From a virus (Duplodnaviria; Heunggongvirae; Uroviricota; Caudoviricetes), in the IMG/VR virus record IMGVR_UViG_3300021403_000003, positions 49,952-113,951 of that record: a stretch of DNA of 64,000 nt; one strand, 5' to 3'. The position numbers and the translations under genes were made by a program. Positions 8,201-62,014 of the stretch are shown piece by piece. Numbering within the stretch: position 1 is the stretch's first letter; the number at the start of each line of letters is the position of its first letter. The notes under the pieces were generated by a model, which worked only from the letters and a program-made list of their open reading frames with translations, was not told where the DNA came from and did not search any database.

Positions 8201-9985
8201 ATGACAGTAAATTCAATAAAAAAACGTGGTCGTGGCAGACCTGCTGGCAGTAAAAGCAAACCAAAGATTCCATTTGCAGATGAATTGACAAAAATAGCTT
8301 TGTCAGGTGACTCTGATTTCTCTTTCGCTTCTAACCCTCGACTGAAGAAAGCAGGTGTTCGTTTTGCTCTAACAGCACAACAAAAAGCAGAATATTTTAA
8401 GTGTGCTGATGACCCAGTTTATTTTATCGAAAAATACATCAAATTCATGACTGATGATGGATTGCAAACAGTCAGTCTCTATCCATTTCAATGTGATCAG
8501 ATTCAAACATATCATGACAATCGTATGGTAATTGTTAAAACAGCTCGTCAGGTTGGTAAAACAACAGTCACAATTGGTTATTTGATTCATTACATATTGT
8601 TTAACAAGGAAAAAACAGTCGGTGTGCTAGCTCAGAAGGAAAAAGTTGCAACAGAAATTCTGAACAAGATCAAACAATCATTTGAGCATATTCCTCTTTG
8701 GATGCAGCAGGGTATTGTTGCGTGGAATGCAACATCTATTATCCTTGAGAATGGTTGTCGTATTTTGTCTGAATCTACATCCACTGGAGCTATTCGAGGA
8801 TTCACTATTCATCTTCTTTATCTTGATGAATTTGCACACGTACCATCACATGTGGCTGAAGACTTTATCACATCTGTGTATCCTACGATTAGTTCTTCCA
8901 AGATTTCAAAGATCATTATCACAAGCACACCACTTGGTTTGAATTTGTTCTACAAATTCTGGATGGATGCAAAGAAAGAATTCAATGATCCTACGAACTG
9001 GAATGGTTTCAAGACAATTGAAGTACATTGGTCATCTGTACCAGGTCGTGATCAGGCATGGGCAAATCAACAGAAGAGAATCTTGGGTGATCGTAAATAT
9101 GCACAAGACGTTGAAGCAGAATTTCTTGGTTCTAGCAACACATTGATCATCGGTAAGAAGCTTTCTGAACTCGCATTTGTTCACCCAACAGAAGTATTGT
9201 TTGATAAGGCAATGGCAATCTACGAAAGACCTATTTCGGGTCACTCGTATGCTCTCTCAGGCGATCCTTCAGAAGGCAAGGGGTTGGACTACTCTTGTTT
9301 CACACTGTTCGACATCACCTCCGCACCTTATAAAGTCGTCGCAAGATTCAGAGACAATACAGTTGATGATGTGGTATTTGCTTCCTACTTGGTACAGGCA
9401 GCACATCACTATAATAATGCATATGTCATTGTGGAGAATAACGAAATAGGAGCATTGGTGTTACATCACGTGATCAATGATCATGATTATGACAACATCT
9501 TTTATTCTTACACTGAAGAACACAAAGAGATTACAGTTACACAAGCAGCACGTGCTATGGTGCCTGGTGTTCGTACAAGTAAGAAAGTAAAGAGTCAGGG
9601 GTGTTTGAGACTCAAAACTCTTGTGGAAACAGATCAGATAATAATCACAGACTTTGAAACAATCAGTGAACTCTCAACATTTGTTCTACAAAAGAACAAA
9701 ACTTGGGCTGCTGAAGAAGGATACAATGATGATACCACAAGCACATTGTGGTTATTTGCATGGTTGACAATTCAACCATTCTTTAGAGACATCTCGGATT
9801 TAAATTTACGAGCTCGTCTCTATGAAGAGCGTGAGAAACAGATGTTGGATCACATGCCTCCACCACCTGTATTGTCTTTGAATGATGTTCCAAAGCCTAA
9901 ATTAGAAGTCAGTGATGGTGTTGTTTGGATTGATTCTTCCATGTCATATGATGAAGCTCTTAGGTTTTTGAACGGTACGGAGTAA
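8201..9985 (+). CDS. Terminase large subunit (gp17-like); N-terminus carries an AT-hook-like KKRGRGRPAGSK
   Basis: Walker A TARQVGKTT matches T4 gp17 SRQLGKTT; GVLAQKEK and GIVAWN blocks and C-terminal WAAEEGYNDD match T4 gp17 WAAEEGYHDD. Confidence 0.93.
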   Translation: MTVNSIKKRGRGRPAGSKSKPKIPFADELTKIALSGDSDFSFASNPRLKKAGVRFALTAQQKAEYFKCADDPVYFIEKYIKFMTDDGLQTVSLYPFQCDQIQTYHDNRMVIVKTARQVGKTTVTIGYLIHYILFNKEKTVGVLAQKEKVATEILNKIKQSFEHIPLWMQQGIVAWNATSIILENGCRILSESTSTGAIRGFTIHLLYLDEFAHVPSHVAEDFITSVYPTISSSKISKIIITSTPLGLNLFYKFWMDAKKEFNDPTNWNGFKTIEVHWSSVPGRDQAWANQQKRILGDRKYAQDVEAEFLGSSNTLIIGKKLSELAFVHPTEVLFDKAMAIYERPISGHSYALSGDPSEGKGLDYSCFTLFDITSAPYKVVARFRDNTVDDVVFASYLVQAAHHYNNAYVIVENNEIGALVLHHVINDHDYDNIFYSYTEEHKEITVTQAARAMVPGVRTSKKVKSQGCLRLKTLVETDQIIITDFETISELSTFVLQKNKTWAAEEGYNDDTTSTLWLFAWLTIQPFFRDISDLNLRARLYEEREKQMLDHMPPPPVLSLNDVPKPKLEVSDGVVWIDSSMSYDEALRFLNGTE

Positions 9986-10025
9986 CAAATGAAAGATTTC
10001 ATGAAGATGACCAAAGTTTGGGGGA

Positions 10026-10409
10026 TTGAGTTTGGCAACATATTTCACTGCAAAGTGGTTACTGTCAGTGGTTCTCTTTTGGTCTTGGTTGGGGCTTTGG
10101 TGGGTTGTTGATAAAACTGGCATCGCGTTTGTCTATTGGGATTGTATGACCAACCAGAACAAACACCAGCACAGCAAGCAGAGGAAATGCTGGCGAAGGA
10201 GTTCCCAAATGCAGAAACTTGAACTTGATTTGCAAGACCTCTTGCTGCATAGGGACATGATGGAAAAGAGTATGCGATACTTCACCAGTCCAATGAGTGG
10301 TGGGATGGTAAGAGGATCAGGCTTAGCAGTTGATGGATTGCGTGATGAATTGGTGAGAACCGAGCGCAGGATCGGCAACATTAAGAAATTGCTAAATAAG
10401 GTTTCCTAA
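10026..10409 (+). CDS. Membrane protein with N-terminal TM segment and C-terminal coiled coil (possible spanin/holin-like)
   Basis: Hydrophobic WLLSVVLFWSWLGLWWVV segment followed by a charged helical region. Confidence 0.35.
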   Translation: MSLATYFTAKWLLSVVLFWSWLGLWWVVDKTGIAFVYWDCMTNQNKHQHSKQRKCWRRSSQMQKLELDLQDLLLHRDMMEKSMRYFTSPMSGGMVRGSGLAVDGLRDELVRTERRIGNIKKLLNKVS

Positions 10410-10436
10410 CTCTTAAAACAAAACAGGGTCCACCAA

Positions 10437-11102
10437 ATGTCAGCATCAGCAAATTCCAAAACAATCGCGATCTCAAATACTGAGACTATCCTTGCCAATG
10501 GCGGACTTGCTGTTGCATCAGGGAGCCTGTCAAATGGTGACTGTTTCAAAGTCACATTAGTCGGCACATTAGGTCAAAATCCCCCATCACAATTGCTGTT
10601 GAACATTCGTATCGGTGCAAATGGTAATGTTGGTGATGCAGCAATTTATTCTTCTAACAATCAGATTTCATCTGCACAGTTGCTAGATGATTTGAACTTC
10701 TGGGGCACTCAGTTCCCAGGTGTTAATGGTAATGAGTATGCATATCCAGCACGTGCAAACAATGCTGTAGTCCCAACACCTGCATATGTCAGTGGGGAAT
10801 TGTTTGTTGTTGTAAACTCCGTTGCTGCCAACGTGGCAAATGTTTCTGTTGTTTCTTCTAATCCTGTAGCAAATCTTGGTGCAAGCAATTGGATCCAGAC
10901 ATTGCCAATGGGTGTGGTGTCATCTGCTAACGTGGCAAGCAATGTCAACAACTTTATTACTGTCAGTCATTCAATGATTGGTCAGCAATCATATGTGTTC
11001 AAGCCAGGATCAGGAAATGCTGGGCCAAGCAAGCAGTTTGTCCTACAGCAAGGAGCAAATGGCACTTCTCAGTTCTTTGTCTCTATTGTTCAAAAGCTAT
11101 AA
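10437..11102 (+). CDS. Hypothetical beta-rich protein (possible virion protein)
   Basis: G/N/S/V-rich; followed by a strong terminator. Confidence 0.35.
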   Translation: MSASANSKTIAISNTETILANGGLAVASGSLSNGDCFKVTLVGTLGQNPPSQLLLNIRIGANGNVGDAAIYSSNNQISSAQLLDDLNFWGTQFPGVNGNEYAYPARANNAVVPTPAYVSGELFVVVNSVAANVANVSVVSSNPVANLGASNWIQTLPMGVVSSANVASNVNNFITVSHSMIGQQSYVFKPGSGNAGPSKQFVLQQGANGTSQFFVSIVQKL

Positions 11103-11159: not shown

Positions 11160-11374
11160 GGAAATCAGACGTAGAATCTGTTCTTCAAAAGGGTCAAAGT
11201 CATCTGGATTCAGTACATCAGCAGGGCTAGGATCAGAATCAACTGTGGATGCCCACCAAAGTGCGCACTGAGTGGCAACCTAGAATCCGGGAGCTGATTG
11301 TAGATGAGGAAAATGATAGAGACAATTGCTGTCAGTGACTTTTCATCTAATCATTGATGGTACACGAAAGCGAG

Positions 11375-11415
11375 AGCCGAATGAAGCGTCCGTGCCCAGT
11401 TCGGCTTTTTCGTTT
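11375..11415 (+). terminator. Hairpin plus T-run (possible terminator or attenuator)
   Basis: AGCCGAA/TTCGGCT stem with 18-nt loop, then TTTTTCGTTTG. Confidence 0.3.
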
Positions 11416-11431
11416 GTCCCTAAATAATCCC

Positions 11432-11965
11432 ATGAAATACATTGACACACTTAAAAATCTACAACGAAAGAAACTCACGAAGGTTTTCTCACTCAAAGAA
11501 CAAGTGCAAGTGGATTGTCCAGGTGGGTTCTTTGTCAAGGCACTCCCAACCACTGAATCAGCTGTTCTTTTGGCTTCCTATTTTCGTGTTTTGGATCCTT
11601 TGCAAATTGATCTTCATGCAACTGTATTATACACAAAGCAAACTGCTGTAGATGTCATCCTACCAAAAATAGACAAACACTCAAGATATTCTGCAATTGG
11701 CAAAGAATTATTGTATTGGGAATCTAATGATGGGAATATTGTTCTTAAGCTTGATTCTCCTGATCTTGTGGCTCTTCACCAACAATTCAAAGATGCTGGC
11801 TTGGTTCCTAGTTTTCCGGAATATATTCCACATGTGACTCTCATACATCCTTGTGAGTACAATCACTACCAACATTTGATGAATGATCTCAGCTCTCGTT
11901 TGTCCTCTGCTCCTCTCTCACTTGAATTTTATTATGGTGGCTATACAATCATGGAAACAACATGA
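11432..11965 (+). CDS. 2H phosphoesterase (LigT / 2',3'-cyclic phosphodiesterase-like)
   Basis: Two H-x-T-x motifs (HATV and HVTL) at the spacing typical of the 2H superfamily; start taken at internal Met downstream of the hairpin. Confidence 0.5.
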   Translation: MKYIDTLKNLQRKKLTKVFSLKEQVQVDCPGGFFVKALPTTESAVLLASYFRVLDPLQIDLHATVLYTKQTAVDVILPKIDKHSRYSAIGKELLYWESNDGNIVLKLDSPDLVALHQQFKDAGLVPSFPEYIPHVTLIHPCEYNHYQHLMNDLSSRLSSAPLSLEFYYGGYTIMETT

Positions 11966-19389: not shown

Positions 19390-19683
19390 ATGATCTTGTT
19401 TGCCAAGAGAATGTTCTTCGTAGATAACGATCATTGGTGGTTGTTACACTATGATTCCGATGGACAAGTAATTGGTATTGATGAAGCGAACTTTGGCTCA
19501 TATGACAAACCAGATCATGTGGATTGGCCAGAAATCTTCATAAGTTTGATTGAGATGTTTGCAGAACGGAATCTAGGAGTCAAATTATCCATTGTGGAAG
19601 TTGCTAATGAGTTCTTGAAAGAAATTGATATTGAATACTGGTCATACTACCATAATGGTGAAATCACGAATGGTGAATCATGA
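19390..19683 (+). CDS. Hypothetical protein
   Basis: GGAG SD. Confidence 0.35.
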   Translation: MILFAKRMFFVDNDHWWLLHYDSDGQVIGIDEANFGSYDKPDHVDWPEIFISLIEMFAERNLGVKLSIVEVANEFLKEIDIEYWSYYHNGEITNGES

Positions 19684-19895
19684 ACAAGAACACGACATTT
19701 GCTCAGATCAGAGATTGCATCTTGGGAACTGGTTTACCTATTGTTGAGTTTCAGTTGATTGATGTCTGGAAGATGGGTGAGCAATCCACAATGACCTTGT
19801 CTGTCAAATTTCAGGCTATTGATAAAACCTTTACCAGAACCGAAATAGACGGTATGATGAAGCAAATAGACCAGGCACTGGAGAAAATCACATGA
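19680..19895 (+). CDS. Hypothetical protein
   Basis: ATGA overlap with upstream gene. Confidence 0.35.
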   Translation: MNKNTTFAQIRDCILGTGLPIVEFQLIDVWKMGEQSTMTLSVKFQAIDKTFTRTEIDGMMKQIDQALEKIT

Positions 19896-20131: not shown

Positions 20132-20446
20132 ATGGTATTACATTCATTCTCACACAGGAGTGACAAAATGTCATTTGATGCCTATCATGATTATATGGAT
20201 AACAAAGAAGGTGACTGGGATGAACAGCTTGTTCTGTTCGAAGTGCCATTTGAAATGAAATCGGTCATGAATCTGAATGATGAAATGACCAAAGTTTCTG
20301 AGAAACTTGGTATTTACAGTGTTGCCATGGCTTGGGAATGTGATAAATGTGGAACTGTCAACCTTGATTCTGATCTGGCTTGCACCAATTGTGGTAGGTT
20401 GTTCAAGGATGTTCCAGATGATGGTGATGAGGTGGAAGGTGAATAG
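20132..20446 (+). CDS. Zn-ribbon protein (CDKCG...CTNCG)
   Basis: Two CxxC pairs; the true start may be the internal Met at 20168. Confidence 0.4.
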   Translation: MVLHSFSHRSDKMSFDAYHDYMDNKEGDWDEQLVLFEVPFEMKSVMNLNDEMTKVSEKLGIYSVAMAWECDKCGTVNLDSDLACTNCGRLFKDVPDDGDEVEGE

Positions 20447-20572: not shown

Positions 20573-20920
20573 ATGGGAGAAACAAAGATGATTTTGAAAC
20601 CAGGAACAATTGTTCGGACTGATATTGAAAAATATGGAGACCAACAATTTGTTATCAAAGGTCATGACATTGATAATGGCAGAATCTGGTATTACATAGA
20701 AAATCCAAGTGAAGGAAATCACAAAGTGCGTCATGATAGGATTATAGTAATACCTGAAATGAAGAAGTTTCTGGTAGCCTATCAAAGACTACCCGGCACT
20801 ACAGTGATCAATCATTTGATTGATGCACTTGAACACAGAGAAGTGGTAGACCTTTTGAATGAACTTTCACCGAATCATTCAGTTATAATTCTGGCTATCA
20901 TTGAAATTCACCCAACATGA
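20573..20920 (+). CDS. Hypothetical protein
   Basis: GGAG SD before the internal MILKPG start. Confidence 0.35.
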   Translation: MGETKMILKPGTIVRTDIEKYGDQQFVIKGHDIDNGRIWYYIENPSEGNHKVRHDRIIVIPEMKKFLVAYQRLPGTTVINHLIDALEHREVVDLLNELSPNHSVIILAIIEIHPT

Positions 20921-20928
20921 GGTTTTAA

Positions 20929-21381
20929 ATGAATCACCGTGAATTGTTATCAGAAATAATTGCATTTGCCACACAACGACATTATGGTCAGTTTGATAAA
21001 GGTGGCAATCCTTACATTCTTCATCCTTTGAAGGTGATGTATTTTCTTAAGACAGATGATGAAGAACTGCAATGTATTGCTGTAGGTCATGATCTAATTG
21101 AAGATACATCTACATCATATGCAGACCTCAAGGAAATTGGGATGACTTTGAGGATCATAGAAGGTATCAGACACCTTACCAATGTACCAGGAGAAACTTA
21201 TGAGGACAAAATCGAGAGAATTTGTTCCAATAAGGATGCCATGTTGGTAAAGCTTTGCGATCTTCGTCACAATTCTGACATCCGCCGACTCAAGGGCGTA
21301 ACGGAAAAAGATCTCAAGAGAATTGAACGGTACCAAAAGATGTACACTGAGATCAAGAATCGATTACAAACCATCAAGTGA
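20929..21381 (+). CDS. HD-domain hydrolase of the RelA/SpoT type (small alarmone (p)ppGpp hydrolase-like)
   Basis: GNPYILHP ... HDLIEDT matches the SpoT/Mesh1 HD motif pattern. Confidence 0.6.
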   Translation: MNHRELLSEIIAFATQRHYGQFDKGGNPYILHPLKVMYFLKTDDEELQCIAVGHDLIEDTSTSYADLKEIGMTLRIIEGIRHLTNVPGETYEDKIERICSNKDAMLVKLCDLRHNSDIRRLKGVTEKDLKRIERYQKMYTEIKNRLQTIK

Positions 21382-21489
21382 ACACAATCATTTAAAATAT
21401 AACAACTTGATTTGATTATGATTTACACCCTTTAATGTAGGGTACACCTAACGATATGCTCTTTTCTCCTCAATCAAAGGAGAAAAGAA

Positions 21490-22542
21490 GTGAAGCATAT
21501 CCCTCAACTTGATGGTTTCAGAGCACTAGCTTGCCTGTTGGTGTTAGGAGCCCACCTCTGGAGATATCCACCTGATCATATCATCACCATGCGAGTGTTT
21601 GGTGGTGGATGGGTTGGTGTAGACGTTTTCTTTGTTCTTTCGGGTTTCCTGATCACTAGGATCCTAATTGAGTCAAAAGACAACCAAAGTTACTTCTCGA
21701 ATTTCTACATCAGGAGAGCTCTTAGAATATTCCCGGTAAATTACATTTTGATGGGAATTGTTCTGTTCGCTTTGCCTTTGTTCTCTAAATTTCCTCAATT
21801 GATGCAAGTAAAGCATGATGAACTTTGGTATTTGTTCTATGCAGCAAACATCATCATAGGGATTGGAGGATGGCAACTCTCACTTCTAAACATAACATGG
21901 TCATTGGCAATTGAGGAACAATTTTATTTGATTTGGCCTGCAATGATGAGATGGTTTTCTATTGAGAGGATGAAAATCATCTGTATTTCTTTGATCATCA
22001 TGGTCCCTGTTTTCAGAGCCATTTTATATCCTTACATTGGCTGGACATGGTGTTATGTTGCAACTCCTTTAAGAACTGATTCATTTGCATGGGGTGCAAT
22101 GATAGCTTTAGGTGGACAAGTTTTCTTCCGTCAAACTGCCATGTGTATGTTGATGATCCCGGTTTGGATTATCGTTCCTAATTTGATCCTTGGTAATTTT
22201 ATGAGGGAAGAATACTGGGTGAGTTCTTTGGGATATAGTTTGACAGCTATGGCCGCAGCGGGAGGATTATGGTTGGTTCTCAATGCAAAGAAAACCATTT
22301 TCTCAAATGTTGTTTTGAGAGAAATCGGGAAAGTGAGCTATGGTACATATTTGTATCACCCTCTTGTATCAGTTGTCGTAAGTCGTTTCTTTGAGGGTAA
22401 ATCTCTTCTAGGATCATGGATTTTTATGGTGATATCAACTTGTCTATCACTTGGTGTTGCAGAACTTTCCTTTAGGTACTTTGAATCACCTATCATGTCA
22501 TTAAGGCAGAAAGTTGTCTCCGTTTGGGGATGGAATGGGTGA
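21490..22542 (+). CDS. Acyltransferase family 3 (membrane-bound O-acyltransferase)
   Basis: About 10 predicted TM helices; N-terminal LDGFRALACLLV and YFFVLSGFLI blocks typical of acyltransferase_3. Confidence 0.6.
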   Translation: MKHIPQLDGFRALACLLVLGAHLWRYPPDHIITMRVFGGGWVGVDVFFVLSGFLITRILIESKDNQSYFSNFYIRRALRIFPVNYILMGIVLFALPLFSKFPQLMQVKHDELWYLFYAANIIIGIGGWQLSLLNITWSLAIEEQFYLIWPAMMRWFSIERMKIICISLIIMVPVFRAILYPYIGWTWCYVATPLRTDSFAWGAMIALGGQVFFRQTAMCMLMIPVWIIVPNLILGNFMREEYWVSSLGYSLTAMAAAGGLWLVLNAKKTIFSNVVLREIGKVSYGTYLYHPLVSVVVSRFFEGKSLLGSWIFMVISTCLSLGVAELSFRYFESPIMSLRQKVVSVWGWNG

Positions 22543-28161: not shown

Positions 28162-28698
28162 TCACTTCAAAATATTGATTAACATCTCAACATGAGAATC
28201 TAAAATACCATTTTCCCAACTTGTTTGAACCAAGTTCTGATCAGGATGGAAATCGCTATCGTCATCCACGCAAGCAAATTGTTTTACTTCTAGATGATCA
28301 TTGAGCCAAGCTTTTACTTCATCTCCACGGATACCTGATCTTTTGCGAGGTGTGATATCTATGATGGGTGCTTCCCAACCAAGTTCTTTCAACATATCCT
28401 TGATTTCATCTAAAGGATGAAGAATACGCCAAGAAGATGAAATTACAATTTGACATCCTGTCGTTTCTACAACCTTTCGAATTCTGGTCAAACAAATGGG
28501 ATCAATTTCAGCTGTGCCTCTTGAAAGCAAAGAAGTCATGTTTATGATCTTCTCTTGATTTTCATGAATGAATTTGCTGGAATTCAGTACTCCATCTATA
28601 TCAAGAAATAGGACTTTCATTTGTGTATCTTTCTGAAAACTGATCTGAGTGCCATCGGTAATGTTGTTACTTGTTCGTTTTGATTCTTTGCTTGACAT
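28162..28698 (-). CDS. HAD-superfamily phosphatase (polynucleotide 3'-phosphatase-like)
   Basis: N-terminal VLFLDIDGVLN matches HAD motif I (DxDG[TV]); later SSSW and D-rich motifs. Confidence 0.55.
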   Translation of the reverse strand: MSSKESKRTSNNITDGTQISFQKDTQMKVLFLDIDGVLNSSKFIHENQEKIINMTSLLSRGTAEIDPICLTRIRKVVETTGCQIVISSSWRILHPLDEIKDMLKELGWEAPIIDITPRKRSGIRGDEVKAWLNDHLEVKQFACVDDDSDFHPDQNLVQTSWENGILDSHVEMLINILK

Positions 28699-37351: not shown

Positions 37352-39046
37352 GTGAAGATATTTGGTTTCGATATCAAGAAATTCAGTGATGAAGTCCCTG
37401 AATCTCCAGTTATGCCACAAAATGATGATGGAGCTATCGTCATTGAAGCTCCTGTCAGTGGTATCTATGTTGATCTTGATTCCTCTTATCGTTCAGAATT
37501 AGATCTCATTCACAAATATCGTCAAATGGCACTCCAACCAGAAATGGAGAATGCTATCAATGATATTGTTGATGAAGCTATCGTTCATGATTCCGATTCT
37601 GGTGAAATCATCAAAATCAACATGGATCGCCTTAAGCAACCAGACAAGATTAAATCATTGATTCGTGAAGAATTTAATAATGTTTTGAAATTGTTAGATT
37701 TCAACAATTTTGGAGATGAGATCTTCCGTAAATGGTACATTGATGGTCGTTTGTATTACAATGTTATCATTGACAAAGATAACCCTCGTGATGGTATTCA
37801 AACCCTTGTATACATTGACAGTCGTAAGATCAAGAAAGTTCGTCAGGTCACCAAGGATAAGAATGCACAAGGAGTTGAAGTCATTACAGGTGTAGAAGAA
37901 TTCTACGTCTATAATGATAAACTTCTCATGACTAATCCAAACAGTGGCAACCCGCTGTTTCAGACTTCCGTTGCTGCAGGTATCCGCTTATCAGCAGACA
38001 GTGTTGTGCAGGTCACATCAGGTGTATATGATCCAATCAAAGCAACCATCCTCAGCTACCTTCACAAGGCTATCCGCCCTCTGAATCAGCTTCGTTTTGT
38101 TGAAGATGCAACAGTTATATATCGTGTAAGTCGTGCTCCAGAACGTCGTGTGTTCTATGTAGACACGAGCGGAATGAACAAAGCCAAGGCTGAACAGTAC
38201 ATGAAGAGCCTTATGACCAACTATCGTAACAAGTTGTCATATGATGCTTCTACAGGAGAGATTCAGGATCAACGTAAGTTTTTGGCAATGATTGAAGATT
38301 ATTGGATGCCACGTAATTCAACAGGCAAATCCAGTGAAATCACGACCCTACCTGCAGGTCAGAACCTTGGTCAAATGGAAGATGTGTTGTATTTCGAAAA
38401 GAAGCTATACAAGGCTCTTGGTATTCCAGCATCCCGTATTGAAAATCCAACAGGGTTATTTAATATTGGTCAGCCTGGCACCATAACTCGCGACGAGGTG
38501 AAATACACAAAGTTCATTCATCGTATGCGTTCACGTTTTTCTTCATTGTTTGATCAATTGATGGAACGTCAATTGGCATTGAAAGGTGTTTGCACAGTCG
38601 AGGAATGGAACCAATTCAAACAAGATTGTTTTTATCAATATCAAGAGGATAACAACTTTGCTGAGTTGAAAGAAACTGAGATCTTGATGAATCGTATGAA
38701 CACATTGACAGTTGTTCAACCATTCATGGGAATTTTCTTCAGTAAGAGTTGGGTCTGGAAGAACATCCTACGCATGGATGAAGATGAAATTAATGATATG
38801 AAAAAGGAAATGGAAGAAGAATTTCAAGATGCAGAAACTCAAGGACATCCACCATTGGCTGGATTCCCACCTGTTGTCCCACCTGGTGCGCCTGTTCCAA
38901 TGGATGGTGATGGACAACCAGGCGCACCAGGTCAAGCTCAACCAGCTGTACCAAAATCACCTGGTCAAGAGGTAGAGGATTCAACTCCAGCAGGACAAGC
39001 TCAAAAGAAAATAAATGATCAAACTAAGGCTTTCTTGAAAAAGTGA
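37352..39046 (+). CDS. Portal vertex protein (gp20-like) with Pro-rich C-terminal tail; GTG start
   Basis: 564 aa, position after gp18/gp19. Confidence 0.8.
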   Translation: MKIFGFDIKKFSDEVPESPVMPQNDDGAIVIEAPVSGIYVDLDSSYRSELDLIHKYRQMALQPEMENAINDIVDEAIVHDSDSGEIIKINMDRLKQPDKIKSLIREEFNNVLKLLDFNNFGDEIFRKWYIDGRLYYNVIIDKDNPRDGIQTLVYIDSRKIKKVRQVTKDKNAQGVEVITGVEEFYVYNDKLLMTNPNSGNPLFQTSVAAGIRLSADSVVQVTSGVYDPIKATILSYLHKAIRPLNQLRFVEDATVIYRVSRAPERRVFYVDTSGMNKAKAEQYMKSLMTNYRNKLSYDASTGEIQDQRKFLAMIEDYWMPRNSTGKSSEITTLPAGQNLGQMEDVLYFEKKLYKALGIPASRIENPTGLFNIGQPGTITRDEVKYTKFIHRMRSRFSSLFDQLMERQLALKGVCTVEEWNQFKQDCFYQYQEDNNFAELKETEILMNRMNTLTVVQPFMGIFFSKSWVWKNILRMDEDEINDMKKEMEEEFQDAETQGHPPLAGFPPVVPPGAPVPMDGDGQPGAPGQAQPAVPKSPGQEVEDSTPAGQAQKKINDQTKAFLKK

Positions 39047-39447
39047 TGGGCACGCCAAGAGGACCATATCAAGGAAAGACTGAGTACAGTCTTTCTCACC
39101 AAAGAAAGCTTGGTTTATTGAAACCAAAGGTGATCGATTACAAGAAAAAGATCATGGATAATGTGAAGATCGATGAGCAAACAGGTTGTTGGATCTGGCA
39201 AAGATGTAAAAACAATCTGGGATATGGATTCACAACATATCATGGTAAAGGAAACCAATTAGTTCATCGCGTTGCTTACATGGAATTCATTGGTCCTATA
39301 CCAGACCCATCTGTTTGTCATAATTGTGACAATCCAAGTTGTTGTAATCCAGATCATCTTTGGTCCGGTACTCAAAGGCAAAATACACAAGACATGATCA
39401 GTAAATCTCGTGAAGGTTGGTTCATGAGCAAGATCATCAATTGCTAA
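39046..39447 (+). CDS. HNH endonuclease (HNH_3-type, free-standing homing endonuclease-like)
   Basis: GYGFTTYHGKGNQLVHRVAY ... CHNCDNPSCCNPDHLW; ATG overlaps the portal stop (TGATG). Confidence 0.75.
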   Translation: MGTPRGPYQGKTEYSLSHQRKLGLLKPKVIDYKKKIMDNVKIDEQTGCWIWQRCKNNLGYGFTTYHGKGNQLVHRVAYMEFIGPIPDPSVCHNCDNPSCCNPDHLWSGTQRQNTQDMISKSREGWFMSKIINC

Positions 39448-46097: not shown

Positions 46098-47522
46098 ATG
46101 ATGAGACAAGTAGATACACAAGCACTTCTCCAGAAGTGGGGTCCAGTTCTCGACCACGAGAGCATGCCACGTATTGGGGATTCACGCCGTCGTTTGCATA
46201 CTGCAGTGCTGTTGGAAAATACCACTGAAGCTGTTTCCGAACAGGTTCGCCTTGAAGGTGCAAACTATATCGGTTTTGAGGCTCAAAAGGCTCTCTTGAC
46301 TGAAACCCTTCCAACCAACTTCGCAGGTACTGGTGGTTATAGCGGTTCCGCTTCAGCAACTGGTCCAGTGGCTGGTTTTGACCCAATCTTGATCAGCTTG
46401 ATCCGTCGTAACATGCCAGTTCTTATGGGATATGATGTTTGCGGCGTTCAGCCAATGACTGGTCCAACTGGATTGATTTTCGCAATGCGTTCCGTTTATG
46501 GTTCCGCAACTGTAAACTCAACTGCACAAAACGAAGCTCTCTACCAGGAAGCTAACAACTTTGGTGGTAACACCAGTTTGACTTTTGTGACTCCATTCGC
46601 AAACACCAACCTCAACCCTGGTGGTTCTAACACCTCTTATGGTTCTGGTGGTGGTTTCCCAACCGCAAACCTAGAAGATTTGGGTGGCGGTACAACCATG
46701 AACACCATGGGCTTCAGCATTGAAAAGGTCACTGTTACCGCTAACGGTCGTGGCTTGCAGGCTGGATACACCTTGGAATTGGCACAGGACTTGAAGGCAA
46801 TTCACGGATTGGATGCAGAAACTGAGTTGGCAAACATTTTGTCAACTGAATTGCTTGCAGAAATCAACCGTGAAGTTGTTCGTACCATTTACATCACTGC
46901 AACAGTTGGTGCTCAGACCAGCAACGTAGCAGGTGTGTACAACATGACTCCAGTTTCTGGTGTCTCTGGTGGTATCTTCGGTGGTGACTCCTACGGTCGT
47001 TGGCAGATTGAAATCTACAAGGGTCTCGTCTTCCAGATCGAACGTGAAGCCAACAAGATCATGAAGGATACTCGTCGTGGTAAGGGAAACCTTGTAATTT
47101 GCTCAACTGACGTCGGTTCTGCATTGGCAATGTCTGGTTTGCTTGATTATGAAAGCAAACTCAGCCAAGTGACTGGTGGTGTTACAACCCCAGATGATTA
47201 CGAGAAGGGAACCTTCTTGGGTGTGTTGAATGGTAAGATCAAGGTCTACGTTGATCCATACTCTGTCTCCGGCGCTGATTACGTCGTTGTCGGATATCGT
47301 GGTTCCAACGCTTATGACGCTGGTTTGTTCTACTGCCCATACGTCCCATTGCAGATGGTTCGTGCGATCGATCCAAACACCTACCAGCCAAAGATTGGGT
47401 TCAAGACCCGTTATGGTTTGGTGGCAAACCCATTCGCTCAGGGTTACACTCAGGGCAGTGGTGCATTGACCGCAAACAGCAACTTGTATTACAGAAAGTT
47501 CATCGTTGCTGGTTTGAAGTAA
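46098..47522 (+). CDS. Major capsid protein (gp23-like)
   Basis: 474 aa; position after gp21/gp22; GGAG SD; strong terminator follows. Confidence 0.8.
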   Translation: MMRQVDTQALLQKWGPVLDHESMPRIGDSRRRLHTAVLLENTTEAVSEQVRLEGANYIGFEAQKALLTETLPTNFAGTGGYSGSASATGPVAGFDPILISLIRRNMPVLMGYDVCGVQPMTGPTGLIFAMRSVYGSATVNSTAQNEALYQEANNFGGNTSLTFVTPFANTNLNPGGSNTSYGSGGGFPTANLEDLGGGTTMNTMGFSIEKVTVTANGRGLQAGYTLELAQDLKAIHGLDAETELANILSTELLAEINREVVRTIYITATVGAQTSNVAGVYNMTPVSGVSGGIFGGDSYGRWQIEIYKGLVFQIEREANKIMKDTRRGKGNLVICSTDVGSALAMSGLLDYESKLSQVTGGVTTPDDYEKGTFLGVLNGKIKVYVDPYSVSGADYVVVGYRGSNAYDAGLFYCPYVPLQMVRAIDPNTYQPKIGFKTRYGLVANPFAQGYTQGSGALTANSNLYYRKFIVAGLK

Positions 47523-48884: not shown

Positions 48885-49214
48885 ATGAGTGGAATTGAAG
48901 ATAATGATCTCAAATTTTTGAATGAGATCGAGAATTTTGAACGTAGGGCTGGTATACAAGGTGGAGATTTTAACAGTGAATCGATATTGATCAAGCCACC
49001 TGAGAATTATACATTTCAAGTTTTCAATAACAACAGCCGTGCAACATTGATGATGACAAAGAACAAATTAACCATTTGTAATCCAGAAGGTTCTCCGGTT
49101 GTTCATATCAGTTTGATTGATGGATCTGTCAAACTTGAAGGAACACCAGATGAAGCTGCAATTCAATTTTGGAAAGCTGTTGGTCAAATGTACCAGACAT
49201 TCATTGATCGATGA
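48885..49214 (+). CDS. Hypothetical protein
   Basis: 109-aa ORF. Confidence 0.35.
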   Translation: MSGIEDNDLKFLNEIENFERRAGIQGGDFNSESILIKPPENYTFQVFNNNSRATLMMTKNKLTICNPEGSPVVHISLIDGSVKLEGTPDEAAIQFWKAVGQMYQTFIDR

Positions 49215-50701
49215 GTGTCATCTACGTCGAGAAAATCAATGAATCACAATTAAAGATTCATACTGAGCAAGCGATCGAACAAGAACTTTGGGAATTCTAC
49301 AGTTTCAGAGACCCAAATTACAAGTTCACTCCACAGTACAGAAAATACAAGTGGAATGGTTATATTCGTCTCTTCCAGAAACGATCTAAAACTCTCCCAG
49401 CAGGATTGTTCAGACACCTCTGTATATTTGCTAAGGAACGGAATCATACCATCCAAGGATATCAATATCTGGCCCAAAACTTTTCCATAGAGGATGCTCG
49501 GAACTACACGAAAGGTTTAAACATCACAACCAAGGGTATATCCATTACACCCTATGATCATCAGGTCCTTGCTATAACAAAGGCTCTGAGGTATAAGAGA
49601 ACCATCTTAGAAAGTTCCACATCAAGTGGCAAATCATTGATTTGTTACACTATTTCTCGATATTTGATCGAAAAAGAAAAGAGAGGATTAATCATTGTAC
49701 CAACTATTGGATTGGTTGAACAGATGTACAGTGATTTTCAAGATTACAGTTCATTCAATGGTTGGAATACCAGCACCTATGTTCACAAAATATATGGTGG
49801 ACTTGACAAATTTAGTGTCAAACAGATTTATCTATCAACTTGGCAATCCATTTATGAGATGGAAGATCCTGATTGGTATAGACAATTTGAATGGGTTGTT
49901 GGAGATGAAGCACATAAATTTACAGGTAAATCATTGACTGGACTCATGACCCAAATGACCAATGCTGATTACAGAATTGGTATGACAGGAACAGTACAAG
50001 ATGGTGAAGTTCACCGTTTGGTGCTAGAAGGAAATTTCGGACCAATTGCAAAGATCGCTACCAATAAAGAGTTGATGGACAAGAAAATTGTTAGTGATCT
50101 GTTAGTTAAATGTTTAGTGCTCAGATATCCACAAACTGAATGTTATGCTGTCAGTAAAATGGATTATCACAAGGAATTGGATTTCCTCGTCACCCATAAA
50201 TACCGCAACAATTTCATCAAAAACCTTTCTTTATCATTGAAAGGTAACACGATGATTCTGTTTCAATTTGTAGAAAAACATGGTAAGGTTTTGTATGAAT
50301 TGATTAAACAAGCAGCTGGTAACAGAAGTGTGTATTTGATTTGTGGTGAAACAGAAGTTGAGCAAAGAGAATACATCAGAAAGATTGTCGAAACTGAAAA
50401 TGATGCAATCATCATTGCATCATTTGGTACATGTCAAGAAGGAATTTCTATTAAGAAAATTCACAGTATAATTTTTGCAAGTCCAAGTAAATCCAAAATC
50501 AGAGTCCTTCAATCAATTGGTCGTGGACTTCGTCTTGATGAATCTAAGGAATTTGCCACCTTGTACGACATCGCTGATGATTTAAGGATTGGTGACGAAA
50601 TTAATATCACATTGCTTCATTACGTGGAACGTCAAAAGCTCTATCACAGGGAGCAATTCAAAGTAAAAGTGTATAATGTAAATCTTGGGAGTAAATCATG
50701 A
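49211..50701 (+). CDS. uvsW: UvsW-like SF2 DNA helicase
   Basis: Walker A SSTSSGKS, motif II VVGDEAHKF, downstream TGT and QSIGRGLR helicase motifs. Confidence 0.75.
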   Translation: MSVIYVEKINESQLKIHTEQAIEQELWEFYSFRDPNYKFTPQYRKYKWNGYIRLFQKRSKTLPAGLFRHLCIFAKERNHTIQGYQYLAQNFSIEDARNYTKGLNITTKGISITPYDHQVLAITKALRYKRTILESSTSSGKSLICYTISRYLIEKEKRGLIIVPTIGLVEQMYSDFQDYSSFNGWNTSTYVHKIYGGLDKFSVKQIYLSTWQSIYEMEDPDWYRQFEWVVGDEAHKFTGKSLTGLMTQMTNADYRIGMTGTVQDGEVHRLVLEGNFGPIAKIATNKELMDKKIVSDLLVKCLVLRYPQTECYAVSKMDYHKELDFLVTHKYRNNFIKNLSLSLKGNTMILFQFVEKHGKVLYELIKQAAGNRSVYLICGETEVEQREYIRKIVETENDAIIIASFGTCQEGISIKKIHSIIFASPSKSKIRVLQSIGRGLRLDESKEFATLYDIADDLRIGDEINITLLHYVERQKLYHREQFKVKVYNVNLGSKS

Positions 50702-53156: not shown

Positions 53157-54871
53157 TTTTGTTTGAAGTAATAAGATGGAAAAATCTGTTGTCTACAGGT
53201 AATAGTTGGACAGAAATCTGGCTCAATAAAAGTTCCACAACCTTGATTATTGGTAAGAATGGTCATGGTAAAAGCACAATTATCGATGCTATTTGTTATG
53301 CTCTATTTGGCAGCCCATTCAGGAAAATCAATCTCGAGTTGTTGATCAACAGTATCAACCTAGCAAACACCAGGGTTGAACTTGAGTTCAGTATAGGCAA
53401 TAAAAAGTACAAAGTCATTCGTGGTATGAGACCTCAAACATTTGAGGTTTACGAAAATGGAATTTTACTGAATCAAGATGCTTCACTAAGAGATTATCAG
53501 AAGAACCTAGAGAAAAATATTCTTGGTTTCAATATGAAGTCATTCACTCAGGTCGTAGTGATAGGATCAAATTCCTTCACACCATTTATGAGGCTTGGGC
53601 CACAAGACCGTAGAGCTATCATCGAGAATTTGCTGGACATCGAGGTGTTCAGCTCCATGAACATTATAGTCAAGAAGAAGGTAAAAGACAACAATGACAT
53701 CATCAAAAGTTCCAAGTCAAAAATTGAAGGATTGGTGGACAAAATTGCTCTTCAGGAAAAGTTCATCAATGACAAAAAGAAAGACCATCAAAAGATTATC
53801 GACGAAAGACAAGTTTCTCATGACAGTATAAAGGTTGAAATCTCGGTATTGAAGAAATCTGCACATGATATTCAACTTGATATTAACACTTTGTTGGGAA
53901 AGATAAATGGTGAGACTATCATCAGAGAAAATGCAAGGAAACTCGAATCATTCAGAACCAAAATAGAAGCAAAGATCAATGGATTGGAGACCGAGAACAA
54001 ATTCTTTGAAACTCACAATGACTGTCCAAAGTGTCATCAACCATTAAGTAATAAGAAGGCTGTCTGTGACCATAATGATAATGAACTTGTGACACTCCGT
54101 CAGGGGTTGGGTCAACTCTTCACCAAACAACACCAAGTAGAGACTCAGATCAATGTTCTTAAGGATATTCAAGCTAAGATAAACAAACGTCAACTTGAAT
54201 TGCGAGAAATACAAACTCGCATTTCTGAGAAGCAACATAGTGTCGATGGGATTGCTGCCAAGATTCAGGAGCTAAAAGATGCTGCAAAGACCACAATTAC
54301 TGACGATCTTCTCAAGGCAAAACAGGACCTGGAAACGGAACTAAAGAAGATAATAAATGAACGAAATGAAGCATTGGAAACGAAGACTTATCTCGATGCC
54401 GCTGTGGTTCTACTTCGGGACGAAGGCATTAAAGCCAAAATTGTTAAACAATATCTTCCTGTTATCAACAAACTTGCCAATAAATACTTGTCCGAACTGG
54501 ACTTCTTCGCTGACTTCCATCTTGATGGAGAATTCAATGAGACCATCAAGTCCCGTCATCGAGACAAATTCAGCTATGAGTCATTCAGTGAAGGACAAAA
54601 ACGAAGAATCGATCTCAGTTTGCTTTTCACTTGGAGAGCTGTCGCCAAACTTAAAAACAGTGTTAACACCAACCTCTTAATCCTTGATGAGATTTTGGAC
54701 GGTTCATTGGATGATGATGGTATGGAAGAATTCATGAAGTTGTTGAACACCTTTGGTAATGGTACAAACAATTTCGTCATCAGTCATCGTGGTGATATGT
54801 TGGCTGATAAGTTCGACAATGTACTCAAATTCAAAATGTCTGGTTTATTTTCAGAGGCAGTAATAGCATGA
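53153..54871 (+). CDS. Recombination endonuclease subunit gp46 (Rad50/SbcC-like ATPase)
   Basis: Walker A IGKNGHGKSTIIDAI, central coiled coil, CPKC zinc hook-like motif, C-terminal LILDEILDGSLD. Confidence 0.8.
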   Translation: MILFEVIRWKNLLSTGNSWTEIWLNKSSTTLIIGKNGHGKSTIIDAICYALFGSPFRKINLELLINSINLANTRVELEFSIGNKKYKVIRGMRPQTFEVYENGILLNQDASLRDYQKNLEKNILGFNMKSFTQVVVIGSNSFTPFMRLGPQDRRAIIENLLDIEVFSSMNIIVKKKVKDNNDIIKSSKSKIEGLVDKIALQEKFINDKKKDHQKIIDERQVSHDSIKVEISVLKKSAHDIQLDINTLLGKINGETIIRENARKLESFRTKIEAKINGLETENKFFETHNDCPKCHQPLSNKKAVCDHNDNELVTLRQGLGQLFTKQHQVETQINVLKDIQAKINKRQLELREIQTRISEKQHSVDGIAAKIQELKDAAKTTITDDLLKAKQDLETELKKIINERNEALETKTYLDAAVVLLRDEGIKAKIVKQYLPVINKLANKYLSELDFFADFHLDGEFNETIKSRHRDKFSYESFSEGQKRRIDLSLLFTWRAVAKLKNSVNTNLLILDEILDGSLDDDGMEEFMKLLNTFGNGTNNFVISHRGDMLADKFDNVLKFKMSGLFSEAVIA

Positions 54872-55665
54872 ATGAAGTGTTTCAAGCACCAGAAATTGTT
54901 GGTGGTCTTCCTAACAAAGAACTCAATGTGGCATCTGACAAGTCATTGGTATTCGTACCGAGTCAAAGAAGAATCACAGCAAAGGGACCCGAAGGACCAG
55001 TTGAATTTGAGATTTTCAAGGTAGTGGATGGATATAACCCTATCCTCAAACAGAAGGCTGTAAATTGGGATTTCTCCAATCCACCTGGACCATTATATTA
55101 CATTGCCATGTCTATGATCCAGACAATGCTCCGCAACGGAGGAGTGGGTCTTGCTGCCAATCAGTGTGGATTACCATACAATCTATTTGTAATGGGTACT
55201 GGACCTAATTTCATGGAAGTTATTGTAAATCCAAGAATTATCAAAACTTCAGGAGAAGAAAAATCTCAGGAAGGATGTTTATCATTTCCAGGATTATATC
55301 TCAAGGTTAAACGAGCAACTCACATTGAAGTTGAGTATGAAGATCTCAAAGGTATGACAAAGAAAGTTGCATACGATGGTCTGACTGCCAGAATTTTCTT
55401 GCATGAATTTGATCATTTGCAAGGTGTCAAATACACCGAGCTTGTTAAATCCATTGATCTTGGTAGAGCAAAGGAAAAAGTCAAGAGCAATCTGAGAAAA
55501 ATGAAACATGTTCGTGAGGATTCTGAAAGGAAGCAACGAGCATTAGTTCATGAGGCAGCAGTTGAGAAGGCTAAACCATCACCAACTATCAATCAACAAT
55601 TGATTTTAGACCAAAAAGCACGTCAAGTTGATGGTAACACTATATTGACTTTCAGCTCAACGTAA
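54868..55665 (+). CDS. def: Peptide deformylase
   Basis: GVGLAANQCG (motif 1), EGCLSFPG (motif 2), HEFDHLQG (motif 3). Confidence 0.8.
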   Translation: MNEVFQAPEIVGGLPNKELNVASDKSLVFVPSQRRITAKGPEGPVEFEIFKVVDGYNPILKQKAVNWDFSNPPGPLYYIAMSMIQTMLRNGGVGLAANQCGLPYNLFVMGTGPNFMEVIVNPRIIKTSGEEKSQEGCLSFPGLYLKVKRATHIEVEYEDLKGMTKKVAYDGLTARIFLHEFDHLQGVKYTELVKSIDLGRAKEKVKSNLRKMKHVREDSERKQRALVHEAAVEKAKPSPTINQQLILDQKARQVDGNTILTFSST

Positions 55666-60264: not shown

Positions 60265-61575
60265 TTGGAGAATGATATGCCAAAGACTGTTTTTGTTGAT
60301 AAACGAGAACACGAAGAACTACTTGGTACCTTCCTGAATGATTCGCATTACGAAACTTTGATTGATGATGATATTGATGTATATGTCAGGGATCGTTTTG
60401 GTAATGAATCTATTGATGAAGACAATGTTGTCTTGAAGTTTCGTAAAAACTGGTTCACAAAAGAACAACAGGAAGGTGCATATGAAGGACTGAAAGATGC
60501 GGCAGTTCAATCTCAAAATCGTGGTTTAGCAGCTGGACCAAAGGGCGAGAAATGCTTGAATCGTGATTGGGTCACACCTGAACAATCTTTGTTTTTGAAG
60601 TTCTTGGAAAAAGTCACATCCAAACCAACAGAAGAAGATGTAGCATTCATCAAAAGTTCTGCTTCCGTTACAGAAGATACAAGGGGATTGGTTTGGCTTG
60701 GTTCTGAGAAAGAAAAGCACAACTTTGATTGGGTTGTTTGGATTAACAAGGTTGTATCTGGTGGAATGACTCTTGATGATATTAAAAAAGATGTCAATTG
60801 GATCAATGATGAATTGATCAGCGATACAACCTATGCTAATCCTGTAGATTCAGGGATTGCTGGTTGGTTTGGACGTTACCCAAGGATTCCATATGGAAGA
60901 GCAACTGCTTACACCAATCATAACCGTCAAAAGTTCGAGTTGTGCTACCCATTTATGCAACAACTCTCACTCGGTTTCGAGCAACTATTACCCCAACGTT
61001 TTTCGAATCAAATGGCAGAAACCGAAAAGCTTGATCCCAATTTCTACATACCAGGCACTCCATTCACAACAATCACTGTTAATAGAAATTTTCGGACAGC
61101 CGCACATCGAGATGCAGGTGATCTTGCCAAAGGATTCTCAAATCTAACTGTTGTAGCAAAGGACAAAAATTATGAAGGTTCTTATCTCGTTTTACCCGAA
61201 GCTCGTGCTGCTGTTAACATTCGTCCTGGCGATCTTTTGCTTGTGGGAAATCATGATTGGATTCATGGCAACACACCCATATTGGCACCCAATGTTGGAG
61301 ACCTTGAGCGTATTTCTCTTGTTTGTTATTTTCGCGAAGACATGTTGGATCTTGGTTCAAAGGAATATGAAGATCAAAGATTCAATTATGTAGAAACTCG
61401 TCGCAAGAACCAATCTCACCCTTTATGGTGGTCACGCTGGAATGGGGTGAGTAATGGTATGTGGGGTGAAGAATGGTTCAATTTTCTACGTGAGAATAAT
61501 AAGGAAAATCTCATAACTAAGTATCATCCAGAAACCACCATTGAAAATAATTCACTTGAGGATTTCTTTACATGA
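60265..61575 (+). CDS. 2OG-Fe(II) oxygenase superfamily protein (large; DSBH core in the C-terminal half)
   Basis: HRDAGD (HxD) ... PGDLLLVGNHDWIHGN (distal His); the true start may be the Met at 60277. Confidence 0.5.
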   Translation: MENDMPKTVFVDKREHEELLGTFLNDSHYETLIDDDIDVYVRDRFGNESIDEDNVVLKFRKNWFTKEQQEGAYEGLKDAAVQSQNRGLAAGPKGEKCLNRDWVTPEQSLFLKFLEKVTSKPTEEDVAFIKSSASVTEDTRGLVWLGSEKEKHNFDWVVWINKVVSGGMTLDDIKKDVNWINDELISDTTYANPVDSGIAGWFGRYPRIPYGRATAYTNHNRQKFELCYPFMQQLSLGFEQLLPQRFSNQMAETEKLDPNFYIPGTPFTTITVNRNFRTAAHRDAGDLAKGFSNLTVVAKDKNYEGSYLVLPEARAAVNIRPGDLLLVGNHDWIHGNTPILAPNVGDLERISLVCYFREDMLDLGSKEYEDQRFNYVETRRKNQSHPLWWSRWNGVSNGMWGEEWFNFLRENNKENLITKYHPETTIENNSLEDFFT

Positions 61576-61808
61576 TGTACAAGTGCATTGAAGCTCCTTG
61601 CTGTTATCAAAATCCTGTTCCAGAACTTCAGTTGCTTCCAAATGGAGAATTTGAGTGTCCATATTGCAAGCGAAACTATGATCAGCAAACTCTTAACAGG
61701 ATATACAAAACAACTCCTTGTATAGGGAATGATGAGGAATGTCATCTATTTTGCTGTAATATCTGGTGTGAAGGTGATTGTGAATATTGTGGAGTTGAAA
61801 GATCATGA
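61572..61808 (+). CDS. Cys-rich small protein (Zn-binding)
   Basis: CPYCKRN ... CCNIWCEGDCEYCG; ATGA overlap. Confidence 0.4.
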   Translation: MMYKCIEAPCCYQNPVPELQLLPNGEFECPYCKRNYDQQTLNRIYKTTPCIGNDEECHLFCCNIWCEGDCEYCGVERS

Positions 61809-62014
61809 CATATGAAGAACTCCGTCAACGTTGTGTGAATTTTTCTGAAATGCATCCAAACAATCCATGTAATTTAATTGATATTGCTAGACATGCTAAA
61901 CGTAGAGCAATAGAAAGAGGAAACATGGATAAGTTTGAAGAACTCGTTATTGAATTAGCAAATTTCATTGAAAATAAGAGAAAACCTAAGAGATGCTCAA
62001 CCAAGAATGGGTAA
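61805..62014 (+). CDS. Hypothetical protein
   Basis: ATGA overlap. Confidence 0.35.
   Translation: MTYEELRQRCVNFSEMHPNNPCNLIDIARHAKRRAIERGNMDKFEELVIELANFIENKRKPKRCSTKNG

Follow-up and report, generated by a model that had tools for sequence, protein, structure and literature searches.

This analysis concerns a 64,000-nucleotide stretch of viral DNA (Caudoviricetes; positions 49,952 to 113,951 of IMG/VR virus record IMGVR_UViG_3300021403_000003), hereafter called the window, and a single small gene within it, at positions 20929 to 21381, that encodes an HD-type hydrolase. The original prediction for this gene, made from the DNA letters, was a stand-alone RelA/SpoT-type small alarmone hydrolase (SAH) that degrades (p)ppGpp in the manner of the Mesh1 family. 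Our results lead us to favor, with moderate confidence, a somewhat different enzyme: an Aph1/PbcSpo-type hydrolase that strips (p)ppApp, and possibly tRNA, of the 3'-pyrophosphate, by which the phage would undo the products of host toxic small alarmone synthetases (toxSAS). The gene and the codons on which the argument turns are as follows.

20919..20922, + strand: Shine-Dalgarno-like GAGG, read from the sequence, 6 nt before the ATG
20929..21381, + strand: complete hydrolase gene, 150 amino acids (aa), stop codon included, with an ATG start, from the program-made list of open reading frames (ORFs)
20995..21027, + strand: DKGGNPYILHP, codons 23-33; Asp23 is at the position of Aph1 D24, and His32 is the first metal ligand
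21088..21108, + strand: HDLIEDT, codons 54-60; HD metal-binding dyad H54 and D55, ED catalytic dyad E58 and D59
21217..21219, + strand: codon 97, Arg, which aligns with the Aph1 signature residue R96
21259..21288, + strand: DLRHNSDIRR, codons 111-120; D111 is a metal ligand, N115 is conserved, and D117 and R120 correspond to Aph1 D116 and R119
21328..21333, + strand: Arg-Tyr, codons 134-135, which align with Aph1 K133-Y134

The ORF at 20929..21381 on the + strand is exactly the one that had been singled out, and both motifs quoted in support of it are found there, GNPYILHP at residues 26-33 and HDLIEDT at residues 54-60 of the 150-aa protein. Its GAGG overlaps the TGA stop of the preceding ORF (20573..20920), so that the gene stands in a close-packed series of small genes, all on the + strand. 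That it is real, far beyond chance, follows from the E-values of its matches to PHROG 990 and to the solved structure 7SMG (both given below), from an identical copy of the 150-aa protein on a public contig of 267,524 bp, from thousands of homologues (in a full scan, 4,845 of 1.84 billion cluster representatives match at E <=1e-10), and from its invariant catalytic residues. Minus-strand ORFs overlap it as well (e.g., 21115..21336), one of which leaves a weak tblastn echo in a related contig (L002); we rejected these as genes and regard them as the shadow of the conserved + strand gene. Scanning for promoters and terminators near the gene gave no usable signal: 18 promoter-like sites versus 11.5 expected, and no terminator on the + strand.

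The protein matches PHROG 990, "metal-dependent phosphohydrolase," with an E-value of 7.9e-59, and TIGR00691 (spoT_relA) over positions 3-148 with an E-value of 3.3e-14; Pfam HD_4 scores 25 bits, slightly under its gathering score of 27.2. The HD domain spans residues 4-149, and no further domain is significant, be it synthetase, TGS, or ACT. The TIGR00691 match, the complete catalytic set, and the single domain thus bear out the prediction of a stand-alone RelA/SpoT-type HD small alarmone hydrolase. Such a domain, with its full catalytic set, would also suit a (p)ppGpp hydrolase that collapses the host stringent response and keeps transcription and translation running. Indeed, homologues are publicly annotated as guanosine-3',5'-bis(diphosphate) 3'-pyrophosphohydrolase, although these names are automatic, domain-based transfers. 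However, no (p)ppGpp hydrolase comes nearly as close in sequence or fold as Aph1. In a single-sequence search, Aph1 of Bacteroides caccae (PDB 7SMG) aligned end to end at 88 bits (E 4.4e-24, 36-37% identity), compared with at most 45 bits for any Rel/SpoT protein (structures at 1e-10 to 1e-6) and 24-27 bits for MESH1. With a family profile built from 62 homologues, Aph1 scored 119 bits (E 1.2e-33), the best Rel 61, and MESH1 27-31. By these scores Aph1, a hydrolase specific for (p)ppApp, is by a wide margin the nearest solved structure. The Aph family was originally defined with an HD-less C-terminal probe of Aph1, Y90-E143 (PMC10083569). This segment, reconstructed here from search alignments, matched the window's protein in phmmer at 29.7 bits (E 7e-6 at Z = 177,635; 24 of 54 residues identical) and gave no match to three Rel fragments. 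By every defining feature testable in silico, the protein classes as an Aph-family enzyme.

The predicted fold points the same way. The AlphaFold2 model, made from the same alignment as the family profile, has a mean predicted local distance difference test (pLDDT) score of 95.1 and a predicted template modeling (pTM) score of 0.90. For this model, Foldseek ranks the four chains of 7SMG first, at template modeling (TM) scores of 0.86-0.88 normalized to the query and 0.89-0.92 to the target and a root-mean-square deviation (rmsd) of 1.2-1.6 Å; the E-value is 2e-10 for Aph1 and 2e-6 for MESH1. MESH1 and PaSAH superpose less closely (TM about 0.79 on the query and 0.65-0.70 on the target, rmsd 2.9 Å), and RelH and the long Rel/SpoT enzymes rank below 7SMG, at an rmsd of about 3 Å and much lower target coverage. 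In the model, the protein has a compact Aph-type fold without the two helices that (p)ppGpp hydrolases have in addition, N-terminal helix 0 and C-terminal helix 9: its target coverage of MESH1 and PaSAH is low, and a length of 150 aa has no space for them. Generic HD deoxynucleoside triphosphatases (dNTPases), which as closest homologues would have refuted the original prediction on its own terms, are remote: the best fold match among them, 2DQB, reaches an E-value of 0.25 and a TM of 0.48, versus 2e-10 for Aph1, and none appeared in the sequence and profile searches of solved structures.

We aligned the protein with Aph1, gp220 of phage PVP-SE1, three Rel enzymes (SaRel, RelSeq, and BsRel), and 134 close homologues. 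Residues H32, H54, D55, E58, D59, D111, and N115 are invariant across the 134 homologues, and the same residues occur in Aph1, SaRel, RelSeq, and BsRel; the active site is intact. Substrate preference is a separate matter, for which six Aph1 residues are informative: D24, R96, D116, R119, K133, and Y134 are conserved among Aph proteins but not found in (p)ppGpp hydrolases (PMC10083569). The corresponding residues here, D23, R97, D117, R120, R134, and Y135, are identical to those of Aph1 at five of the six positions, and the sixth is a conservative Lys-to-Arg change. Position by position, the comparison is as follows.

Aph1 D24: D23 in the window's protein; Asp in 100% of the 134 homologues; Arg in the Rel enzymes
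Aph1 R96: R97; Arg in 88% (118 of 134); Glu in the Rel enzymes
Aph1 D116: D117; Asp in 100% of the 134; a gap in the Rel enzymes
Aph1 R119: R120; Arg in 100% of the 134; Thr in the Rel enzymes
Aph1 K133: R134; Lys or Arg in 100% (Lys 127, Arg 7); Arg, Arg, and Asn in the Rel enzymes
Aph1 Y134: Y135; Tyr in 100% of the 134; Thr and Thr in two Rel enzymes, the third fragment ending earlier

The protein also carries a two-residue insertion, S116-D117, that the Rel enzymes lack, and the ENHRK-containing segment of Rel is missing from Aph-type proteins. Two residues contact guanine in (p)ppGpp hydrolases, the Arg of the RxKxxxxYxxHP motif and the Thr after HN (R43 and T153 in TtRel): in their place the window's protein has Asp23 and Arg120, both invariant in the clade. 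In Aph1, ppGpp activity requires changes at precisely these positions, and the double mutant D24R/R119A acquires ppGpp hydrolysis (PMC10083569). Tyr134 of Aph1 has been proposed to touch the substrate pyrophosphate, and Aph proteins are described as homotetramers (PMC10083569).

Enzymology of the family agrees with the residues. Aph1 cleaves pApp, ppApp, and pppApp but not ppGpp, and among 12 purified Aph homologues all hydrolyzed ppApp; modest ppGpp activity was seen in two of them and none in the other 10 (PMC10083569). Those two homologues lend something to the (p)ppGpp alternative, as does the fact that phages can be restricted by the stringent response (10.64898/2026.01.27.700999). Even so, with the guanine contacts replaced, we consider an enzyme that works mainly by collapsing the stringent response unlikely. 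Placement among the (p)ppGpp hydrolases of the Mesh1 family does not hold up, as sequence, profile, and fold all put the protein with Aph1, in what is probably an Aph1/PbcSpo family, and (p)ppApp-specificity residues stand where the guanine contacts would be. The proposed role, to strip host (p)ppGpp or related signaling or defense nucleotides, divides along the same line: the specificity residues make its (p)ppGpp part less likely, and its second part pointed in the right direction.

From the Aph family membership, the specificity residues, and the assayed homologues, we infer that the substrate class is most likely 3'-pyrophosphorylated adenosine rather than (p)ppGpp. The protein would be a metal-dependent HD enzyme, compact and of a single domain, whose reaction takes the 3'-pyrophosphate off pApp, ppApp, and pppApp; it would probably act little, if at all, on (p)ppGpp. 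A plausible further substrate would be the pyrophosphorylated 3'-terminal adenosine of tRNA (the CCA end): since tRNA-targeting toxins modify the 3'-OH of the terminal adenosine, an adenosine 3'-pyrophosphohydrolase looks chemically well suited to reverse toxSAS modification of tRNA. The most likely use of such an enzyme in a lytic T4-like phage would be counter-defense. Infection would trigger host toxSAS, whether FaRel-type producers of (p)ppApp or tRNA pyrophosphorylators of the CapRel/PhRel/FaRel2 type, and the hydrolase would reverse the modification, so that ATP pools and translation are kept for phage production. CapRel is established as an anti-phage system (PMC9712102). The stand-alone SAH of Salmonella phage PVP-SE1, classed as PbcSpo, neutralized five of five toxSAS in Escherichia coli (CapRel, PhRel, PhRel2, FaRel, and FaRel2), and it has already been proposed that phages bypass alarmone-based defense through hydrolases of their own (PMC7229694). 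Moreover, ATfaRel, also a PbcSpo enzyme, restores the aminoacylation of FaRel2-pyrophosphorylated tRNA (10.1101/2021.04.30.441581).

Several points weigh against this interpretation. Position 134 of the protein is Arg, where the family majority has Lys. The Aph signature would seem to be no absolute predictor, given that two of the 12 assayed homologues have some ppGpp activity. PVP-SE1 gp220 was assayed solely by rescue of toxicity in E. coli (PMC7229694), and we found no enzymology on the window's protein or on any phage member more than 60% identical to it. Activity on tRNA has been shown for ATfaRel and MESH1 only, with none reported for Aph1. Finally, the window is a partial view, 64 kb of about 267 kb.

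The hydrolase gene lies in a variable accessory arm of the phage, between the large terminase and the tail sheath, and shares this arm with the Acb1, HAD_SAK_2, and NADAR genes. The other features identified in the window, in order, are these.

8201..9985: large terminase
11354..11965, + strand: Acb1 anti-CBASS 2H phosphodiesterase, 203 aa; Pfam 52.5 bits versus a cut-off of 27
19680..19895, + strand: 71-aa ORF, 1 kb upstream of the hydrolase gene, with a sub-threshold FDX-ACB (PheRS anticodon-binding) match, 29 bits versus 31.1
21490..22542, + strand: Acyl_transf_3 membrane acyltransferase, 350 aa, 84 bits, PHROG O-antigen acetylase/O-acetyltransferase, directly downstream of the hydrolase gene
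28162..28698, - strand: HAD_SAK_2 ("Swiss Army Knife" RNA-repair phosphatase domain), 105.8 bits
29146..29616, - strand: NADAR domain protein, 85 bits
31595..32428, + strand: SPFH/Band 7 family protein of the accessory arm, 94 bits
34980..36704: tail sheath
37352..39046: portal
39043..39447, + strand: HNH_3 homing-endonuclease-like ORF, directly after the portal gene and inside the structural module
46098..47522: major capsid protein
49211..50701: helicase
54868..55665, + strand: peptide deformylase, 127 bits
58661..60055: AAA_5 ATPase, just upstream of the next group
60265..63809, + strand: three adjacent genes for a Tet/JBP 2OG-Fe(II) oxygenase, an N6/N4 DNA methylase, and an amino acid:DNA transferase, ADDT (83, 59, and 43 bits)

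The last group looks like a DNA base hypermodification cassette. The window also encodes a neck protein, a gp15-like tail sheath stabilizer, a small terminase, UvsY, and a gp46/47-like nuclease pair; its structural and replication proteins are of the T4 type. The portal is 47% and the capsid 56% identical to their best cultured relatives. These belong to marine cyanomyoviruses, joined in the case of the portal by a Stenotrophomonas phage; structural proteins are 47-57% identical to cyanomyovirus proteins. A megablast search with 15 kb around the gene found no near-identical DNA in the phage collection. Judged by these comparisons, the window comes from an uncultured, large, distant T4-like phage with no close cultured relative. 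Peptide deformylase is an auxiliary gene typical of marine cyanomyoviruses and gives a weak hint of the host; a cyanobacterial host is possible. The hydrolase itself carries no host signal: cyanobacteria are missing from its best 80 bacterial-genome homologues, and no cyanophage is among the phage homologues listed (about 100 of 380 records).

The immediate neighborhood says little about function. The adjoining small ORFs (19390..19683, 20132..20446, 20573..20920, and others) have no PHROG match and weak or no Pfam matches. For a lytic T4-like phage, the acyltransferase downstream is an unusual gene to carry. Between it and the hydrolase gene, in a spacer of 108 nt, is a strong hairpin (21458..21491, + strand, 13 + 3 pairs); the 121-nt region 21375-21495 folds at -27 kcal/mol (z -3.9), and none of its shuffled versions folds that well. 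The hairpin sequesters the GGAG at 21479-21482 and the GTG start at 21490 of the acyltransferase gene, and might either control translation or serve as a T-less terminator. No tRNA genes were found in the 64-kb window, and no Rfam families at 15-30 kb of it.

Related contigs show how the neighborhood changes. The closest homologue, 76% identical, is encoded by a related T4-like phage contig (L009, from Logan ERR3200796) whose sheath and tube proteins are 64% and 75% identical to those of the window. There, at 8582..11095 of that contig, the hydrolase gene sits in the equivalent variable region and is followed directly by CTP_transf_like (NMN adenylyltransferase)/NUDIX and NAMPT genes, an NAD+ reconstitution pair. 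In a second relative (L001, 67% identity), a NADAR gene lies 1.3 kb from the hydrolase gene. Because these equivalents have other flanks, the comparison suggests that the hydrolase is kept across the phage clade while its neighbors vary, among accessory genes of the counter-defense type.

The same neighborhoods bear on what the enzyme would act against. Aph1, the closest solved relative, gives protection from Apk2, the MuF-fused (p)ppApp synthetase toxin of a Bacteroides prophage (PMC10083569), and the window's gene might likewise confer immunity to a synthetase toxin of its own phage. Yet the roughly 60 window ORFs scanned with Pfam and/or PHROGs, mostly those above about 90 aa and from 64 kb of about 267 kb, include no RelA/SpoT synthetase, MuF, or Tis1; the flanks are unrelated small ORFs and the acyltransferase; the hydrolase neighborhoods in L009, L001, and a third contig, L010, are also without such a toxin; and MuF neighbors accompany just 0.4% of Aph homologues (Ahmad et al., PMC10083569). 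We regard self-immunity as very improbable. The company of Acb1 and NADAR, counter-defense genes that deal with nucleotide signals, would also fit a general eraser of such signals, whose main substrate is another phosphorylated nucleotide: NADPH or 3'-phosphoadenosine-5'-phosphosulfate (PAPS), as for MESH1, or pGpp, or a defense signal. RelA/SpoT-type hydrolases are promiscuous; MESH1 binds NADPH and PAPS, according to the titles of its PDB entries, and an orphan bacterial SAH is called metabolically promiscuous (PMC9765508). However, nothing positive in the clade speaks for such a substrate, the adenine-side signature and the homologue data favor 3'-pyrophosphorylated adenosine, and cyclic oligonucleotides differ in chemistry from the substrates known so far and are already covered by the phage's Acb1. 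To this idea we give only a slim chance.

Within the preferred reading, that of an adenosine 3'-pyrophosphohydrolase that reverses toxSAS products, the emphasis could fall on tRNA. The hydrolase may act chiefly in RNA repair as counter-defense, stripping the tRNA 3'-pyrophosphate placed by CapRel, PhRel, or FaRel2, alongside HAD_SAK_2 and NADAR as an anti-abortive-infection set; we infer this much more tentatively and hold it to be possible but doubtful. If this is true, the de-pyrophosphorylation of tRNA known in vitro from ATfaRel would have its first natural setting in an infection.

In phages, 380 records carry a homologue, none of which reaches 60% identity to the window's protein. Among the carriers are T4-like phages of Aeromonas and Stenotrophomonas, phiM12 and phiN3 of Sinorhizobium, Vequintavirinae, Ralstonia phage RSP15, and temperate phages of Streptococcus; the usual annotation of the homologues is "metal-dependent phosphohydrolase." Bacterial homologues reach at most 61% identity, in contigs of metagenome-assembled genomes, followed by 40-50% in Pseudomonas, Janthinobacterium, Myxococcota, and Clostridia. 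Five homologues of 270-395 aa (P0140, P0145, P0158, P0193, and P0210) match the query in two stretches and are apparently tandem-duplicated or fused Aph-type HD domains.

Large phages commonly carry this accessory gene, and its description here adds a data point, not a new principle, and another candidate for an infection test against toxSAS. Its value is in part one of annotation: public pipelines name these phage proteins (p)ppGpp hydrolases, whereas the residues and the characterized relatives indicate adenosine 3'-pyrophosphates. Relabeling moves the predicted biology from damping of the stringent response to the undoing of toxSAS-type abortive-infection toxins. The idea was proposed in 2020, and we found no demonstration of it in infection in the searchable literature; if confirmed there, it would be a direct case of a phage enzyme that reverses the chemical product of a defense toxin.

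Among known systems, the MazG/Atd1-type pyrophosphohydrolases resemble the proposed enzyme in their role, since phage erasure of alarmones or immune nucleotides has been proposed for them. In contrast, they have an unrelated, all-alpha NTP-pyrophosphatase fold and cut NTPs between the alpha and beta phosphates, not at a 3'-pyrophosphate; the roughly 60 window ORFs scanned gave no MazG match. Atd1, for which the label "alarmone-degrading enzyme" of a phage is in use, appears unrelated to the HD family, since the study behind it (Ho et al.) is also cited, in a paper on phage Adele, for a MazG-like pyrophosphohydrolase. The MESH1/PaSAH-type enzymes (3NR1, 5VXA, and 6YVC) belong to the HD superfamily too and have the catalytic residues and the overall helical core of the window's protein; however, they are about 180 aa long with extra helices (target coverage 0.67), hydrolyze (p)ppGpp, and, according to PMC10083569, lack the Aph signature.

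ATfaRel of Cellulomonas marina has been published as a member of the same SAH subfamily as PVP-SE1 gp220. It degrades (pp)pApp and takes the 3'-pyrophosphate off tRNA, which is the mechanism proposed here, but it is a chromosomal type IV antitoxin of the FaRel toxSAS and is encoded beside the toxin. Aph1, like the window's protein, is a single HD domain of about 150 aa, and the two align end to end; they have all metal-binding and catalytic residues in common, carry two extra residues behind the HN motif, and lack the ENHRK segment. It differs in one residue of that motif, Asp113 there being His114 here, where the Rel-like HN is retained. It also differs in setting: Aph1 comes from a temperate Bacteroides phage, where its gene follows that of the cognate toxin, MuF-Apk2, and serves in immunity, whereas the gene in the window is in a T4-like, lytic-type genome.

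A phage homologue that has been tested is PVP-SE1 gp220 (136,782..137,291 of the PVP-SE1 record). It is a Vequintavirinae protein, not a T4-like one, and has 169 aa, with N- and C-terminal extensions. Nevertheless, it is 54% identical to the window's protein over 133 residues (E 2e-51), its best PDB match is also Aph1 (7e-27), and it matches at five of the six signature positions, with Gly at that of R97. Like the gene in the window, gp220 is encoded by a stand-alone gene of a large lytic myovirus, and its neutralization of all five toxSAS tested is the best functional proxy available for the window's protein.

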